UHGV virus genome: UHGV-1680239
DNA from: a virus
Strand: one strand, 5' to 3'
Length of the DNA stretch: 53,635 nucleotides
In this document: positions 2,973-26,029 of the stretch, in pieces
How positions within the stretch are numbered: position 1 is the stretch's first letter
Layout: each line of letters opens with the position of its first letter
The notes under the pieces: generated by a model
What the model saw: only the letters and a program-made list of their open reading frames with translations
Databases searched by the model: none
What the model was told of the DNA's origin: nothing
Made by a program: the position numbers and the translations under genes

Positions 2973-3291
2973 TTGTACCCCCTGATGGCCTTTGATGTAG
3001 GAAGACCATCGCTCTCCTCTATTCAAACTGAGTTTTCGACTCAAAGATTACTTTAAAGGGCTATAGCCCATTATGTATGCGTCAACAAATTATGTACGGC
3101 ATAACACCGTACTTGTAATATAGAGGTCATTGTTACTTTTTTCAACAGACAAATACAAGCTATGATTGCCAATTGTTAATCACAACCTACCATTTAACCT
3201 TTACACCGCAGCCGTAGGCATTTAGGCTATATCACATATAAGAAAACAAGTTGTTTCAGACGATAATTATATACGCAAAGGGAACTCTCCA

Positions 3292-3960
3292 ATGACCAAG
3301 ATCTTTGTGGTTGGCGGCACAAAGGGCGGGCCTGGCAAATCCACCGTTGCCCAGCAAATTGCCGTTTGCCTGAAAGTCAAAAAGAAGAAGAAGGTTTATA
3401 TTACCGATATAGATATTCAGCGCACGACAACGAGCTGGTGTGAAGACCGTCGACAGAACGAAGACCTTGAGCTGATTCCTTTTGCATACGTTCAGGATGA
3501 CATCATTAAGCACCTAAAATCGCTTCAGGGTAGAGCTGAGTTTGTAGTGGTAGATGCTGGTGGCTTCGACTCCGAAATTCAGCGACAAGCGATGCTGATG
3601 GCTGACGTTATCATTATCCCGCTGCGTCCTAAGCGTCGTGATTTGAAATCTCTGCGTGACATCGATCCTATTATCGACAATGTTCGTAATGTAAACGATA
3701 AAGTGAAGGTCCGCGCGGTCATGAACCAGTGCCCGGCTTTGCCATCACAAGTGTCTCGCATTCTGGCGGCTAAAGAGATTGTTGAGACGTTTGGAATCGA
3801 GTCTGCGCCAGTCAATCTATATAACCGCAACGTCTATGATGATGCGGAAGAGTCTGGTCGTTCTATCTTTGAAATGACCGGTAGCGAGCGCGACAAAAAG
3901 GCGGAAGCCGAGTTTGAAGAATTTGTAGATTATCTGTTGAGTCTGGAGGAAGAAGAATAA
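3292..3960 (+). CDS. parA: ParA/Soj-family partition ATPase
   Basis: Deviant Walker A GGTKGGPGKST; 222 aa; followed by a small RHH-protein gene with overlapping stop/start. Confidence 0.85.
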   Translation: MTKIFVVGGTKGGPGKSTVAQQIAVCLKVKKKKKVYITDIDIQRTTTSWCEDRRQNEDLELIPFAYVQDDIIKHLKSLQGRAEFVVVDAGGFDSEIQRQAMLMADVIIIPLRPKRRDLKSLRDIDPIIDNVRNVNDKVKVRAVMNQCPALPSQVSRILAAKEIVETFGIESAPVNLYNRNVYDDAEESGRSIFEMTGSERDKKAEAEFEEFVDYLLSLEEEE

Positions 3961-4319
3961 TGTCCATGAAAATGGGTGACCTAGCAAAGCGCAAAGAGCC
4001 TGATGCACCGGCTAAGAACACAACTCCTTTGCGCCAACCAGTCAGACCACAGGGACGCCCGACTCGTGGCAAAGAGAAAATTAAAAGCCGCACAATGTCA
4101 CTGGAGGACGAATACTTCGAACTGCTGGAGATGATGAAGTTCATCCCTCGCTTCGAGAAGTTCACTCGTTCTGACGTGATTCGAGCAGCCATTTTCCATC
4201 TGGCAGAGAAGTCACCGCAGGAAATCGAGGACATCGTGAAATTGAATGAGGCGATCACCGCTGCCGATGTCACGATGCGTACCGATGAAATCAAACGAGA
4301 GTTGATGAAGAAAGGTTAA
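3960..4319 (+). CDS. small ribbon-helix-helix protein, probable centromere-binding partition partner (ParG-like)
   Basis: 119 aa, basic disordered N-terminus, RHH-like SLEDEYFELLEMMKFIPRF; translationally coupled to parA. Confidence 0.5.
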   Translation: MSMKMGDLAKRKEPDAPAKNTTPLRQPVRPQGRPTRGKEKIKSRTMSLEDEYFELLEMMKFIPRFEKFTRSDVIRAAIFHLAEKSPQEIEDIVKLNEAITAADVTMRTDEIKRELMKKG

Positions 4320-7577: not shown

Positions 7578-7628
7578 GATTCATTGGTGAAACAACTTTT
7601 CTTTTGCCAAACCACAAAAGAAAAACAC

Positions 7629-8807
7629 ATGAGCCTTTATGTTATATCAACATTTAGGTTGGTCACAATATTGCCTATTAAAAGTGGAATTATCGTGAGC
7701 GAGCTGAAAGAGCTAATTACCGAATTAGATTTTGAACAATGGTTGGACACTGAAGGTATCGTTTATCGACGTGGAGGCGTGAGTGCTCGCGGTCGTGAAG
7801 TGAATATCAAGGAGTGTCCGGTATGCGGCAGCTCCAACTGGAAGGTATATTTCAATCTGACCAGTGGCGTCGGTAAATGCTTCGCTGGTGATCATCCCGA
7901 AGAGATTCAGTTCAATAAGCTGGTCTTCCTCAAGCACTACAGCGGCAAATCACGACGACAGTTCGAGGAATATGTGCAGAACGCCCTTCTTTCCCAGGGG
8001 TGGGCACCAAAGAAAGAAGAGATAGTGCTTGCAAGCACAGTCGAGTTAGAGGGACCACTTGCACTCCCTCGTCATTACGAACTTCCTATAGATGGCCGTC
8101 TTCCAGACTATCTGGTTGAACGAAACATATCGCCTGAAATGGCAAAGTATTTTGACCTACGATACTGCGTCGAAGGTAAGCACGCCTATGTAGATCCGTA
8201 TACAGATCAGGTTAAAGGACAGATATTCGATATGCGAATACTGATACCGGTTTACGATCTGGATGGGGTAATGAAGACATTTCAGGGACGAGACATTACC
8301 GGTACAGCAGAACGCCGCTACCTCTTTCCTATGCAGCTTCCAGCTTCAGGTAAGTTTCTCTACAACGGCCATAATGCAGTCGGCAAACAGACTGTAGTTG
8401 TCTGTGAGGGGGCGTTCGATGTTATGGGGGTTAAACGAGCTATTTTTGACGAAGAAACATTACGTGATTACGTGGAACCAATAGGAACGTTCGGGATGCA
8501 TCTATCTGGTAACACCACTCAGGATGCAGAAGATCAGTTAGGCGCGTTCCTGACGCTCAAGGCGCGTGGGTTACGTAATGTGATCATGATGTGGGATAGT
8601 GAAAAGCAAGCTATACGTAATACGATGGCCGCAGCCAGGCGACTGACCAGTATTGGTCTTAATGTCAAAGTGGCGTGTTTGGGCGAGGAAGGACTCGACC
8701 CGGGCGATGCAACGCCAGAGCAAATCATCAAAGCCTATTATCGGGCAAAACCGTATACCAAGCAGTTGGAGTTACAAAGCAAGGTTTTGGGCATTAAGGC
8801 TCTATGA
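7629..8807 (+). CDS. DnaG-type DNA primase (zinc finger plus TOPRIM)
   Basis: CPVCGSSNW...KCFAGDH zinc-binding motif; TOPRIM VVVCEGAFDV; the ATG at 7629 sits in the conserved AAAAACACATG context (track start 7557 lies inside the hairpin). Confidence 0.8.
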   Translation: MSLYVISTFRLVTILPIKSGIIVSELKELITELDFEQWLDTEGIVYRRGGVSARGREVNIKECPVCGSSNWKVYFNLTSGVGKCFAGDHPEEIQFNKLVFLKHYSGKSRRQFEEYVQNALLSQGWAPKKEEIVLASTVELEGPLALPRHYELPIDGRLPDYLVERNISPEMAKYFDLRYCVEGKHAYVDPYTDQVKGQIFDMRILIPVYDLDGVMKTFQGRDITGTAERRYLFPMQLPASGKFLYNGHNAVGKQTVVVCEGAFDVMGVKRAIFDEETLRDYVEPIGTFGMHLSGNTTQDAEDQLGAFLTLKARGLRNVIMMWDSEKQAIRNTMAAARRLTSIGLNVKVACLGEEGLDPGDATPEQIIKAYYRAKPYTKQLELQSKVLGIKAL

Positions 8808-21377: not shown

Positions 21378-24300
21378 ATGAAGGCACTGATGGTTCGAAC
21401 TGACTTCTCACTTGGGGAGTCGGCTCTAAAAGCAGAAAACGCGGTGAAGATTGCCAGAGAAGCTGGCTACACCGCTGTAATTTCAGCAGATAGCATGAAT
21501 ATTGCGAGTGTTATTCCACTACAACGTGCCGCTGGTGACGACATGGCGGTTATTTGTGGTGTGAAACTAAACATTGTTGATGATCCCACATACGAGCACC
21601 GGGCTAAACTTGCTAAAGAATCTATGAGATGTATGGAATCATTAGAGCGGGGACGTAACTACTCGTTTACCGCTCTAATTAAAAATGAGCAAGGATATCG
21701 CGACATCTGCGAACTAATGACGGTGGCCAACACACGAGAACAGTTCTACTTTGTACCGCGTCTCTCGCTCGAACAGTTGGTTTCTACATATGCCAAAGGC
21801 AACATCATCCTGCTCACTTCCGACATCGGTAGCGTGTTCCAACGCAACGATTTTGCAAAAATCATAAGCTCACTGATTACAGCGGGCGGGAAAGACAACT
21901 TCTATAGCGTGGTTTATCCGCACCCTACCCCATTCTACGACCAGATTAACGTCCGGGCGATGAAAGTAGCCAGCGCACTGAAAATAGAGCCAGTAGCGTT
22001 TTATCCCGCTTATTACGAATCGATCGACGATGCTGACATTAAAGACATTGCGCACATGGTTACGAACAACATCAAAATCGACCAGCCGCATCGTCTGCGT
22101 ATCCCCCACCAGCGAGATAACGCCATCAATGGTCGTCGCCATCTCCTTGAGGCGCTTAAAGCCTTCTCCGTTCGCATGGATGTGCCGGTAACAGCTGCAA
22201 TGGCCTCAACAACGCAGGACTCCATTATCGATGCCTGCACATGGCGCTGGCATGAATTGCCACCAGCACTGCCCAAGATGGCAGACGACGAACCTGCAAC
22301 GCTGATGAAACTGGCTGTTGAAGGGCTGCGTAAACGTCTTACCACAAAAGAGTTTGGATACACACCACCTGCTTCTGAGAACAGGGTTTATGTTGAGCGG
22401 CTAAAGTACGAAATGGACACGCTGACTCGCCTGGGATTTTGTGGTTACTTCCTGATGGTACGCGATCTGATGAATCACAGCCGTGAAACTGGCATTCCTG
22501 TCGGGCCTGGTCGTGGTTCCTCTGCCGGTTCTCTGGTGGCGTGGTGCATAGGCATAACCAACGTCGACCCAATCCGTCACGGTCTTCTGTTTGAGCGTTT
22601 CATCAACCCTGAGCGTCTCGACTTGCCGGATGCGGACTTGGACTTCAGCCAGGCACGTCGCCATGAGGTGATCGAGTATCTGAATGAACGCTACGGCGAA
22701 GATTACGTTGCAGGCATTCCGAACTTCACCTATCTGGGCGCGGCATCTGCGCTGCGTGACACTGCACGTATTTACGGTGTCGATGCTGCGGATATGGCGG
22801 TATCCAAAGAGTTCAAGAATATGGAGGACGACAGCCTGTCTCTGGAAGAGCTGCGCGAACAACTGGCAAGTCTCGACAAATACGCAACAAAATATCCTGA
22901 TGCATTCAATGCAGCCTGCAAGTTACAAAGCCTTATGCGTGGCTTTGGTAGACATGCGGCAGGGATGATCGTAGCAGGTGTTCCTCTGACAGAACGTACA
23001 CCGGTTGAGCGCCGTGGTGACGCGCGTTGTATCGCATTTGACAAGCGTTACTGCGAGGCTATGGGCCTAATTAAGCTGGACGTGCTTGGCCTGGCAACTC
23101 TCGATTTGCTCGATAGTGCAAAACGCTACATAAAAGAGAACACAGGTGAAGATATCAATCTTGATGCCATTTCTCTTGAAGATCGCAAGGTGCTGGATGG
23201 TTTTGCTGCTGGGTACACTCAAGGTGTTTTCCAGCTTGAATCAGGCCCAATGCGCAAGCTGCTTAAAGATTTAGGTGGTGGAATTGAGCCAATGAGCTTT
23301 AAAACGGTCGTCGCTACAACTGCGCTCTTCCGGCCGGGGCCAATTCAATCAGGCATGTTGGATGACTATGTTTCTGTCGCCAAAGGCTTTATGACGCCGG
23401 AATCATTACACCCCGTTCTTGATGAACTTACCGCGGAAACAAATGGCGTGATTCTCTATCAGGAACAGACGATGAACGCGACTCGATTGCTTGCCGGCTT
23501 CACAATGGCTGAAGCTGACGCTGTGCGTTCCGCAATCGGTAAGAAGAACATGGAAAAAATGAAGAGCATGGGCGAGAAGTTCATCGTTCAGGCTCAAGCT
23601 GGCTGGATAGACGTTGAGCTGGAAGATGGCACTACACAGCGCATTCACCGTGCGGAACATTTTAAATGCGAAGACGGAACTCTGAAAACTGTCGAAGAGG
23701 CGTTGGAGCATGGAGTGAAGCTGCCAATGCCAGTTGTGCGCGTTACAACGTCACATCCAGGTCTGTCTGAGACGAAGGCAAAAGAGATATGGACTGCATT
23801 TGAGAAAAACGGAGCCTATCAGTTCAATAAATCACACTCCGTTGCTTATTCTTTAATCAGTTATCAGTCTATGTGGCTAAAGACGCACTACCCTGCTGAG
23901 TTCTTCGCAGCTGCGCTCACCATTCTGGGCGAGGATAAGCATCAGGGGCTGGTGAAGGATGCGCTGACCTATGGCATTCGCGTATTGCCACCAGACGTTA
24001 ATGTGTCATCTAACCGAATTGAGATCCGCACACTCGAAGACGGCAGTCAGGCACTGTATGCGCCATTCTCTGCTGTGAAAGGCTGTTCTGAAAATGGTTG
24101 TCAGGCAATTATGCGTGCGCGTGAGAAAGTTGGTGGCAAATTCGAGTCAGTGGCACAATTCGATGAAGCGGTCGAGAAGCGTGCATGTAACAGTCGTGTA
24201 CGCGAGTCGCTTCATAAAGTAGGGGCTTTTGCGTCAATTGAGCCAGGCAGTCTGCCAGCAACTGATCCTGAACGACTGCGCGACCAGGCTGAGCTGATGG

Positions 24301-24896
24301 GCAATCTCATCATTGACGCTGTTAAAGCATCACGTCCGTTCGAAATGAATCCTAAGCGTTCTGCCGAAATCAACGTACTCATGACACGTATGGCGGCTGA
24401 AATGGGCTTGGGTGAGGAGTTGATACGCCCGACTATTGGTATTAAACCCAAAATCATGATCATTCTGGACAATGCGAACGGCAATGACGCTCGTACCGGC
24501 TACTTCATGGAGAACGGATACGACGACTTTAAGGCAAAACTACTGACAGTTGGAGATCTGCGCATGGGCGATCTTTATGTCACGGGTGTTTGTAAGAAGG
24601 TTAAGGACAAAGAAAAAGACTACACCAAAGACGAGATCGGCCAGTTCACCGACTTTATGCGTGAAGAGATCAATCTGGTGCGTCCAACCTACATTTTGAC
24701 GTGTGGTAGTCGTTCAACCGCACTATTTAACAATAAGAGTAAACCATCAGATCTGATTGGTCGTAAGGAGTACTTCCCGGAGCTTGATGCAACCGTCTTC
24801 TACGGATTTAACCCGAATATCCTGTACTTCCGACCGGAAGAAGGAGAGCGACTGGAGGCCATTCTGGCTGATATCGCGGAGACGATAAATAAGTAA
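21378..24896 (+). CDS. dnaE: DNA polymerase III alpha-subunit-like replicative polymerase (DnaE-type, N-terminal PHP domain)
   Basis: 1172 aa; GPGRGSSAGSLVAWCIGIT and FNKSHSVAYSLISYQSMWLKTHYPAEF are hallmark DnaE segments; ATG in the conserved AAAAACACATG context. Confidence 0.9.
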   Translation: MKALMVRTDFSLGESALKAENAVKIAREAGYTAVISADSMNIASVIPLQRAAGDDMAVICGVKLNIVDDPTYEHRAKLAKESMRCMESLERGRNYSFTALIKNEQGYRDICELMTVANTREQFYFVPRLSLEQLVSTYAKGNIILLTSDIGSVFQRNDFAKIISSLITAGGKDNFYSVVYPHPTPFYDQINVRAMKVASALKIEPVAFYPAYYESIDDADIKDIAHMVTNNIKIDQPHRLRIPHQRDNAINGRRHLLEALKAFSVRMDVPVTAAMASTTQDSIIDACTWRWHELPPALPKMADDEPATLMKLAVEGLRKRLTTKEFGYTPPASENRVYVERLKYEMDTLTRLGFCGYFLMVRDLMNHSRETGIPVGPGRGSSAGSLVAWCIGITNVDPIRHGLLFERFINPERLDLPDADLDFSQARRHEVIEYLNERYGEDYVAGIPNFTYLGAASALRDTARIYGVDAADMAVSKEFKNMEDDSLSLEELREQLASLDKYATKYPDAFNAACKLQSLMRGFGRHAAGMIVAGVPLTERTPVERRGDARCIAFDKRYCEAMGLIKLDVLGLATLDLLDSAKRYIKENTGEDINLDAISLEDRKVLDGFAAGYTQGVFQLESGPMRKLLKDLGGGIEPMSFKTVVATTALFRPGPIQSGMLDDYVSVAKGFMTPESLHPVLDELTAETNGVILYQEQTMNATRLLAGFTMAEADAVRSAIGKKNMEKMKSMGEKFIVQAQAGWIDVELEDGTTQRIHRAEHFKCEDGTLKTVEEALEHGVKLPMPVVRVTTSHPGLSETKAKEIWTAFEKNGAYQFNKSHSVAYSLISYQSMWLKTHYPAEFFAAALTILGEDKHQGLVKDALTYGIRVLPPDVNVSSNRIEIRTLEDGSQALYAPFSAVKGCSENGCQAIMRAREKVGGKFESVAQFDEAVEKRACNSRVRESLHKVGAFASIEPGSLPATDPERLRDQAELMGNLIIDAVKASRPFEMNPKRSAEINVLMTRMAAEMGLGEELIRPTIGIKPKIMIILDNANGNDARTGYFMENGYDDFKAKLLTVGDLRMGDLYVTGVCKKVKDKEKDYTKDEIGQFTDFMREEINLVRPTYILTCGSRSTALFNNKSKPSDLIGRKEYFPELDATVFYGFNPNILYFRPEEGERLEAILADIAETINK

Positions 24897-24902
24897 TAAA
24901 GA

Positions 24903-24924
24903 AAACCCGCCAACTGGCGGGTTT
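24903..24924. terminator. bidirectional hairpin terminator
   Basis: AAACCCGCC-AACT-GGCGGGTTT between the dnaE stop and the minus-strand gene stop at 24927; T-run on the minus-strand side. Confidence 0.5.
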
Positions 24925-24926
24925 CA

Positions 24927-25490
24927 TTATGCGCATTTCGCAATATCCTTGCGGCGTTTAATCAGTTTCTCAGCAATTTGCTCTATTTCGTTGAAATCTT
25001 TCGAGACGCTGTTTCGAAGCGCCAGATTCCATTTACTCAAAGTTCGGGCATTTTGGACAATCTGATCGCCCTCTTTAAGTCGTCCGTTATCCATGAGCCA
25101 TTCAGCCACATCAGCCCAATCCCACAGAGGCGACTGGCCTTTTATGCGTTGTACAGGGCAAGGGAAGTCGCCGCTTCCGCGCTTACCGTCTTTGAGCAAC
25201 GCCACAGCCTGGCGAGACAGGTCTGTCAGTTCCGCGATATCGCTTAAGCCCACAAGAGCCGAGTCGACGGATTCAACAATTGCACCGATACCGGCTGATT
25301 CAATATTGTCGACCGCAGATGCGATAGCTGCATCAAGTGATTGTGCTTCGCGGTCAAATTCTACATAGACGGAGTTTCCATATGCGCAAATTAGCGCATC
25401 GTCACAGCCGTTTTGGTACAGCGCGTCTTCCAGTCCTTCCGTCTCATACGATACGCCTGAGAGCGTCAGAGTGAAGTTATAAAGCGCCAT
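24927..25490 (-). CDS. two-domain protein with C-terminal HTH-like region (candidate antitoxin/regulator; HicB-like is only a hypothesis)
   Basis: Internal ATG (MALYNF...) preferred over the track's TTG at 25526; lies 25-60 nt downstream of a 74-aa gene on the same strand. Confidence 0.4.
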   Translation of the reverse strand: MALYNFTLTLSGVSYETEGLEDALYQNGCDDALICAYGNSVYVEFDREAQSLDAAIASAVDNIESAGIGAIVESVDSALVGLSDIAELTDLSRQAVALLKDGKRGSGDFPCPVQRIKGQSPLWDWADVAEWLMDNGRLKEGDQIVQNARTLSKWNLALRNSVSKDFNEIEQIAEKLIKRRKDIAKCA

Positions 25491-25550
25491 AGTATTCCTT
25501 TGAAGATAGTTGGACAGTTTCTGCAAAAGGCGGCAATAGCCGCCTTGAAA

Positions 25551-25775
25551 TCATTTACAACGATCAACCATTCGTTTGATCTGTTTGGCATGGTTTTCGG
25601 GATTACCCGGAGTCGACCATACGCTCATTTGGTGAGTTTTGTGTTCACCTTCTGGATTACCGCATCTCAGTCTGCAAAAACAATGTGCAGCACCACCAGC
25701 TGCTACCCAGATCCAGCCTTTACTTAATGCATAGTCAATGGCTGCTTGAATATGCTTATTCGGATGTTGCTTCAT
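25551..25775 (-). CDS. small protein, HicA-like toxin candidate (weak)
   Basis: 74 aa; GW..G.AH ... SVWSTPGNPENHAKQIKRMV loosely resembles the YcfA/HicA pattern; upstream of the partner gene on the same strand. Confidence 0.35.
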   Translation of the reverse strand: MKQHPNKHIQAAIDYALSKGWIWVAAGGAAHCFCRLRCGNPEGEHKTHQMSVWSTPGNPENHAKQIKRMVDRCK

Positions 25776-26029
25776 TCGCCTCCGATAATAGTATTCTATT
25801 CACAGTGTTGACATCTGTCAACGGCGACTGAATTTCATCCGTTCATGCCATACCCCCATCCATCTCATGTATGTGACCTAAAGATGGTCAGCACAGCTTA
25901 CCAAAATAAGACAACTAATTATCTTCGGTGATCTCAATATTTTCCCCTGAACAAAGTTGACATGACGCCATAAACCCGTTCTCTGTTTGATATAATTGAT
26001 ACAGATTTTATAAGTAGGAACCTATTAGA

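Follow-up and report, generated by a model that had tools for sequence, protein, structure and literature searches.

A probable autoregulated toxin–antitoxin-like gene pair, hicAB-like in outline, on an SSU5-type phage-plasmid

UHGV virus genome UHGV-1680239, a stretch of 53,635 nucleotides (nt) referred to below as the window, carries on its minus strand two small adjacent genes, here called A and B, which encode proteins of 74 and 187 amino acids (aa) and lie between dnaE and an operon for a single-stranded DNA-binding protein (SSB). Across this region the window shares 98.3% identity with pLF82, the SSU5-like phage-plasmid also known as Escherichia phage Cyrano. We conclude that A and B probably constitute an autoregulated type II toxin–antitoxin (TA)-like cassette of an SSU5-type phage-plasmid, which resembles hicAB in outline and is not a member of that family. 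The original prediction, made from the sequence alone, had described the pair as a HicA-like candidate upstream of a two-domain helix-turn-helix (HTH) protein, in a toxin-first addiction or regulatory cassette. Both open reading frames (ORFs) and their position between dnaE and the SSB operon, on the opposite strand, were confirmed, and a toxin-first cassette fits the operator, the pairing of A with the N-terminal domain of B, the survival of B where A is lost, the many genomic contexts and the complementary charges of the two proteins, whereas the assignment of the partners to the HicA and HicB families was not supported by the searches described below.

The pairing of the two genes was assessed from both sides, using 80 loci from different bacterial species collected through B, and 62 viral plus 80 metagenomic loci collected through a narrow A alignment; in the metagenomic loci, partners were located with a hidden Markov model (HMM) of the B N-terminal domain over all plus-strand frames. 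An intact, co-oriented A lies directly upstream of B in 69 of the 80 B-anchored loci, and a co-oriented B homologue adjoins A in all 62 viral and in 74 of the 80 metagenomic loci (five of the remaining six are cut by a contig end), which places the pair far beyond chance. A full ORF for the B N-terminal domain follows A immediately in 135 of the 137 assessable A-anchored loci, the two exceptions being L226, with a divergent partner, and the metagenomic contig L103. The losses are lopsided: A is broken or missing next to B in 11 of 80 loci (three frameshifted, three reduced to a truncated remnant and five absent), whereas B is lost beside an intact A in one of 137 (L103; Fisher p = 9e-5), and this asymmetry runs against target size, as A is 2.5 times shorter than B. 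Losses of this kind would be expected of a harmful A that is tolerated only next to B, and of a B that does no damage by itself. Adjacent small genes that are co-transcribed as an obligate pair, here with a single promoter and a single terminator, and an orphan antitoxin that is tolerated where an orphan toxin is not, are features of type II TA modules, and the cassette, with A as putative toxin and B as putative antitoxin, agrees with both. Two more losses of A, additional to these 11, were seen at the corresponding site of other SSU5-like plasmids. A deletion in pTB212 removes all of A together with the promoter and the first strand of B, while in pYLPD4a the core of A has been replaced by a 59-bp perfect palindrome with B and the operator intact. 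The pYLPD4a palindrome (CTTAACTTCCAAAGGGTACTCCCGCC-GACATAA-GGCGGGAGTACCCTTTGGAAGTTAAG; L147 ~2440-2500, NZ_CP074008.1) stands in place of A codons ~14 to 67 and could represent either a scar left by a deletion or a small mobile element of hairpin type.

The second line of evidence is a palindrome, GTTGAC-N4-GTCAAC, which occurs once in the window, at the promoter of the cassette. Of the 80 B-anchored loci, 72 have this palindrome no more than 600 bp upstream of B, and there is no copy elsewhere in the 1.31 Mb of sequence fetched, where 0.08 would be expected by chance. Its 12 fixed bases are conserved and the sequence flanking it is not. In two distant viral loci (L131 and L132) it is replaced by the symmetric variant GTTTAC-N4-GTAAAC, and other distant loci have a different palindrome; such concerted change of both half-sites is characteristic of a site recognised by a symmetric dimer. 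Judged from these sequences, the palindrome would be the binding site of a B dimer that represses its own operon. One plasmid copy departs from the pattern: in Yersinia pestis NCTC5923 (L004, a 108-kb contig, ~7620-7640) the right half-site is degenerate (GTTGAC-ACGC-GCTCAC) beside A and B genes that look intact, and the cassette may be derepressed there.

Protein A is basic (isoelectric point (pI) 9.5; family median 9.4) and is predicted to adopt an alpha-beta-beta-beta-alpha, HicA-like fold whose best structural neighbours are HicA-family structures. A Foldseek search of the A model against the PDB returned no HicA and had its best matches, at E > 1, to aminotransferase sub-domains. The conserved residues of the family are H4, K7, W21, H31, C38, C/H48, T55, P56, H62 and C73. 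Among them H31, present in 91 of 96 A-family sequences, lies just ahead of strand beta2 (residues 32-37) in a G-S-A-H-x-F/W motif that resembles the G-S-(N/H)-H of HicA, and would occupy the position of the HicA catalytic His in the beta1-beta2 turn (His23 in E. coli, His24 in B. pseudomallei). The family also has a conserved N-terminal H-P-x-K motif and a set of Cys38, Cys-or-His48 and Cys73, accompanied in about half of the sequences by His75, and the interchange of Cys and His within the set suggests a structural metal site.

At the level of sequence, the A family (716 clusters at 50% identity, E <= 0.001) could not be joined to HicA. Against Pfam and NCBIfam, A gave no HicA match at E <= 1 and only spurious weak matches; none of 96 diverse family members matched PF07927; and narrow and broad A-family HMMs run against PDB sequences recovered no HicA and nothing else of meaning. 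Profile–profile alignment with hhalign, using shallow HicA profiles, gave no significant result, with a probability of 70% on 16 columns in non-collinear segments against E. coli-type HicA, and of 19.5% on 17 collinear columns (alpha1-beta1) against a diverse set of four PDB-derived HicA sequences and E. coli K-12 HicA. The HicA label for A is in our view acceptable only as "HicA-like fold", and not as membership of the sequence family. Ten of the 96 family members give weak sub-threshold matches to the Pfam model RuBisCO_small, which accounts for the misannotation of one A homologue (P0039, Shewanella sp. 1180_01) in public records as "ribulose bisphosphate carboxylase small subunit".

Protein B, which had been described as having two domains, is modelled in three parts (predicted local distance difference test 87): a ferredoxin-like N-terminal domain, a winged HTH and a helical hairpin. 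The N-terminal domain is strongly acidic (pI 4.05, net charge -13.5), and the charge contrast with A (pI 9.5) holds throughout the family; toxins that act on nucleic acids are usually matched with their antitoxins in just this way, basic against acidic, and the N-terminal domain would be the part of B that binds and neutralises A. The DNA-binding segment recognised in the original prediction, which includes SPLWDWADVAEWL, is real, although it lies centrally (about residues 78-135) and not at the C-terminus. The C-terminus is instead formed by the hairpin, which is basic (pI 9.7), has an invariant W154 and N155, is absent from the short partners found in distant relatives, and is possibly a dimerisation element. 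Pfam and NCBIfam searches with B returned spurious weak matches only (those of A and B together comprised RuBisCO_small, mycosin and CagE), with none to Phage_AlpA at E <= 1, and the B profile retrieved nothing meaningful among PDB sequences.

These results bear directly on the annotation of the pair in Cyrano as a canonical hicAB system, in which A would belong to the HicA mRNA interferase family and B would be a HicB antitoxin. The HMM search of both proteins that had been suggested as a check yielded neither a HicA nor a HicB match. HicB has an N-terminal partial RNase H-like fold and a C-terminal ribbon-helix-helix (RHH) or Xre-type HTH, whereas B has a ferredoxin-like N-terminal domain, then an AlpA/excisionase-type HTH and a helical hairpin, and hhalign against HicB (a shallow target profile) gave a probability of 0.2%. 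B was rejected as a HicB on these grounds, and we consider a canonical hicAB system very improbable.

The HTH of B invites another label. It resembles that of the GIsul2 excisionase, and B falls in the PHROG family phrog_2620, "excisionase and transcriptional regulator", at E = 2.5e-105, so that B could be an excisionase or recombination directionality factor next to A as an unrelated small phage protein. Proteins of the AlpA/excisionase group are short winged-HTH proteins that match Phage_AlpA and usually accompany a cognate integrase; B has two extra domains and is almost always paired with A. The cassette has no integrase beside it, whether in the window or in the chromosomal loci, and SSU5-type elements replicate as plasmids, with 110 of 110 E. 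coli copies plasmid-borne. The lack of an integrase and the plasmid lifestyle led us to reject this reading, which we find hardly credible.

The main rival to a TA-like cassette is a pair without toxicity, in which B is an AlpA-like transcription factor and A a small modulator such as a co-repressor, anti-repressor or chaperone. B does contain a bona fide phage-type HTH, a B-only gene occupies the same site in other SSU5-like plasmids, and no sequence evidence links A to a toxin family. What argues otherwise is that the invariant partner of A is the N-terminal domain of B, which does not bind DNA. Distant relatives often pair A with a protein of just 86-100 aa that corresponds to B residues 1-71 and has no HTH, which indicates that the conserved function is the protein–protein pair of A and the N-terminal domain, with the DNA-binding part as an add-on, and not control of transcription. 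Furthermore, the cassette sits with its own operator alone between housekeeping genes in many chromosomes, with no phage there to regulate, the palindrome is confined to the promoter of the cassette itself, and the asymmetric losses are those a TA module would produce. On account of the HTH-less partners and the solitary chromosomal copies in particular, we regard a non-toxic regulatory pair as unlikely, if less so than the other alternatives. Unusual architectures were seen in three distant metagenomic relatives (L217 ~3215-4050, L207 2952-3628 and L206 2721-3076): the B N-terminal domain is fused once to an NYN/YacP-like region, and in two contigs it is apparently in frame with A in one ORF, which is either a TA fusion or an assembly error.

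The promoter of the cassette agrees with the sigma-70 consensus at 11 of 12 positions in a consensus scan and ends ~18 nt upstream of the A start codon; TTGAC and a -10-like box are present at the equivalent place in nearly all related loci, and a promoter scan of the region detected no internal promoter for B. The A-B spacer of 60 nt contains a GC-rich, terminator-like stem-loop, and a perfect GC-rich hairpin of differing sequence was found in at least 24 of 69 related spacers (those of L003-L082), 17 times with a T-rich tail; the structure is kept and the sequence is not, and the hairpin is absent where the spacer is shorter than about 35 nt. The spacer hairpin is a possible attenuator or RNA-stability element. 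A second hairpin, directly after B, is predicted to end the A-B operon and is also placed to terminate the convergent dnaE, and an Rfam scan of the region gave sub-threshold chance matches only. In the LF82(Cyrano) lysogen, CYRAN_51 (A) and CYRAN_50 (B) are expressed at 30 and 14 times the prophage median (PMC9928086). The Cyrano A protein is identical to that of the window, and the transcription of the Cyrano copies in the lysogen means that the operon is active in the plasmid-prophage state. The spacer hairpin may explain why the A transcript is twice as abundant as that of B in LF82. An excess of A over B, as the hairpin and the transcript ratio give it, is easier to accept for a harmless protein and in that respect favours the regulatory pair.

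Across the 80 species, the cassette and its operator occupy at least 28 chromosomal settings that are unrelated to one another, most commonly as a bare two-gene insert between yfcH/folX and hisJQMP in Klebsiella, Kluyvera, Scandinavium and relatives. We considered whether the pair might be a dedicated anti-phage defence system acting by abortive infection, which would exclude competing phages rather than maintain the plasmid. In a search of the PADLOC models, A hit six for PDC-M06A (best 1.2e-19) and B hit PDC-M06B (1.5e-32), the genes have the adjacency that PDC-M06 requires, and the expression of the pair in the lysogen resembles that of morons, prophage genes whose transcription does not depend on the master regulator of lysogeny (PMC9928086). 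The PDC systems were put forward because their genes lie within BREX, DISARM and type I restriction–modification (RM) loci, and all 145 of them are untested candidates (bioRxiv 10.1101/2024.01.29.577857). A defence-island context was sought in 111 flanking proteins sampled from diverse contexts and was not found: transporters, LysR/GntR regulators and metabolic enzymes predominate by far, and a few proteins match defence models, for example MADS, DrmC and PDC-S68. This reading also overlaps in mechanism with a TA-like cassette, since a TA module can do both. A role confined to defence therefore seems to us improbable, although not as remote as the hicAB and excisionase readings.

Several observations weigh against the TA-like cassette as we describe it. 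The link of A to HicA is structural and of moderate strength. The spacer hairpin and the 2:1 ratio of A to B transcript would tip the balance towards the putative toxin, contrary to what is usual in TA modules. In the metagenomic contig L103 an intact A is accompanied by a B that lacks the ribosome-binding site (RBS), the start codon and the first ~15 codons, so that this A is either a genuine orphan "toxin" or the product of faulty metagenome assembly; the comparison was made with its near-identical sibling L102 (L103 4001-4800, IMGVR_UViG_3300013741_000046). Finally, the chromosomal neighbours are mostly housekeeping genes and not defence genes, which leaves a dedicated defence-island role unsupported.

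In the mechanism that we propose for the TA-like cassette, a single sigma-70 promoter would give rise to an A-B transcript. B would act as both antitoxin and repressor: its winged HTH, probably as a dimer, would bind GTTGAC-N4-GTCAAC at the -35 box and shut the operon, and its acidic ferredoxin-like N-terminal domain would bind and neutralise A. Free A, a basic protein with a predicted HicA-like fold resembling a double-stranded RNA-binding domain, a conserved His and a Cys/His site, probably binds and cleaves RNA. If B were no longer replenished, for example after loss of the low-copy plasmid prophage or when an infecting phage shuts off transcription, A would be freed and growth would stop, with the effect that the phage-plasmid is stabilised, infection is aborted, or both. 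The analysis itself establishes the genes and their strict pairing, the conservation of the operator, the mobility of the cassette and the similarities in fold, and the literature adds transcription in lysogens; the toxicity, RNase activity and metal binding of A, its contact with B, the binding of B to the palindrome and the instability of B are what we infer in this scheme.

SSU5-like phage-plasmids are widespread (E. coli, Shigella, Enterobacter and the Salmonella phage SSU5), and an addiction module at a fixed site would partly answer how these low-copy elements are kept. More broadly, and tentatively, since we give it somewhat less than an even chance as a whole, the cassette may represent a large unnamed TA or defence family that joins a metal-stabilised RNase of HicA fold to a new acidic, ferredoxin-like antitoxin domain, the latter occurring alone or fused to exchangeable DNA-binding or nuclease modules, and that serves phage-plasmids of the SSU5, pMT1 and Cyrano types in both addiction and abortive infection. 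Despite the size of the family, no Pfam or NCBIfam family model is matched by either partner. If the proposal is true, a ferredoxin-like domain that neutralises a HicA-fold toxin would be a new antitoxin domain in the TA repertoire, and the PADLOC candidate PDC-M06 would gain a mechanism; if A is not toxic, the cassette is an ordinary pair of small regulators.

The features of the locus are collected in Table 1. The start of B was set at the ATG listed there and not at TTG 25526, where a mechanical ORF list begins it (199 aa), because all aligned homologues (40 of 40) begin with MALYNF; the RefSeq and Cyrano annotations likewise give a gene of 564 nt.

Table 1 Features of the A-B cassette and its flanks in the window.
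Feature	Position	Strand	Details
Gene A	25551..25775	minus	74 aa; ATG start, GGAGG RBS at 25783-25779
Gene B	24927..25490	minus	187 aa; ATG at 25490, stop at 24927; AAGGA RBS at 25500-25496
B N-terminal domain	25260..25490	minus	aa 1-77; beta-alpha-beta-beta-alpha-beta, ferredoxin-like; conserved GCDD and FDRE motifs
B central winged HTH	25071..25259	minus	aa about 78-140; AlpA/excisionase/MerR-like; includes SPLWDWADVAEWL (residues 120-132)
B C-terminal basic helical hairpin	24927..25070	minus	aa 141-187 and stop codon; helices 143-162 and 166-186 (model)
Sigma-70-type promoter	25793..25821	minus	TTGACA 25821-25816, 17-nt spacer, TAGAAT 25798-25793
Putative operator	25807..25822	no strand	GTTGACAGATGTCAAC (GTTGAC-N4-GTCAAC, 16 bp); overlaps -35 box
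GC-rich stem-loop in A-B spacer	25527..25546	minus	AAGGCGGC-TATT-GCCGCCTT, then TTG; terminator-like
Predicted intrinsic terminator hairpin	24902..24925	minus	perfect inverted repeat; 10-bp stem with 6 G-C pairs, T-rich tail
dnaE	21378..24896	plus	one flank of the A-B pair
UvsY-like/gp32-like SSB operon	from about 26030	plus	divergent; other flank of the A-B pair

Within E. coli, the 849-bp pair was found in 110 of 5,426 complete genomes, in every case on a plasmid of ~105-120 kb and never on a chromosome. The adjoining dnaE segment is present on 244 E. coli plasmids of the same ~105-120 kb type, which implies that roughly half of the E. coli SSU5-like elements carry the pair in the sequence form seen in the window. 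Phage SSU5 itself has a diverged cassette at the same site (SSU5_055 and SSU5_054, the latter annotated "AlpA-like"), and further copies lie on plasmids of Enterobacter, Citrobacter, Klebsiella and Cronobacter and in 63 Yersinia plasmid records, mostly Y. pestis plasmids of ~100 kb, which we take to be pMT1. The short gap between dnaE and B (window positions 24897-24926) is a site of variable insertions: a cspG cold-shock gene lies there in many E. coli relatives (L002 3456-3671), Cyrano has ~820 bp of extra DNA without an annotated gene (L001 4198-5045), and SSU5 has another ORF, SSU5_053 (L228 3391-3816). Downstream of the SSB/exonuclease genes, a 2,340-nt gene labelled "RecA" in Cyrano is named "LAGLIDADG family homing endonuclease" by RefSeq (L002 7955-8849, L001 8999-10218), which suggests a RecA containing an intein or homing endonuclease in Cyrano-type phage-plasmids.

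Literature searches that covered PDC-M06, the RefSeq accessions, and HicA in connection with SSU5 yielded the Cyrano paper and the PDC preprint and nothing else. In the former, the pair carries the annotation HicA/HicB and is counted with the morons expressed in the lysogen, without functional tests (PMC9928086), and the family as a whole has been labelled in four inconsistent ways: "HicA/HicB", "hypothetical + AlpA regulator", "excisionase" and "RuBisCO small subunit". PDC-M06, as defined by Payne et al., is a bioinformatic candidate with neither a tested phenotype nor an assigned mechanism or fold, and unlike the loci from which it was derived, the cassette described here is found on a phage-plasmid or alone among housekeeping genes, and not in BREX, DISARM or RM loci. 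Among reverse-order type II systems, higBA and mqsRA likewise place the toxin gene first and have an antitoxin that acts as an autorepressor on promoter palindromes (PMC11594946). Their toxins are RelE-like and unrelated in fold to A, and whereas they use internal antitoxin promoters, the spacer here has a terminator-like hairpin, with no internal promoter detected. AlpA-type proteins are single-domain proteins of about 60-70 aa that usually lie beside an integrase; B differs from such AlpA/excisionase-type regulators in its added acidic N-terminal domain and helical tail and in having no integrase neighbour. From HicAB (HicA PF07927/COG1724; HicB COG1598/COG4226, PF15919, PF05534) the pair is set apart by the lack of any detectable sequence or profile relationship, by the H-P-x-K motif and putative metal site of A (Cys38/Cys-or-His48/Cys73, His75), which were not seen in the HicA sequences aligned here, and by a B that is ferredoxin-like where HicB is partial RNase H and AlpA/excisionase-type where HicB is RHH or Xre. 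What it shares with HicAB is the overall plan: a small (putative) toxin gene upstream of a larger antitoxin gene, a toxin with a predicted alpha-beta-beta-beta-alpha fold and a conserved His at the start of beta2, palindromic operators at the promoter, and an antitoxin that combines an N-terminal neutralising domain (a role that B would fill) with a DNA-binding domain, the latter being dispensed with in some HicB-like partners as it is in some relatives of B.

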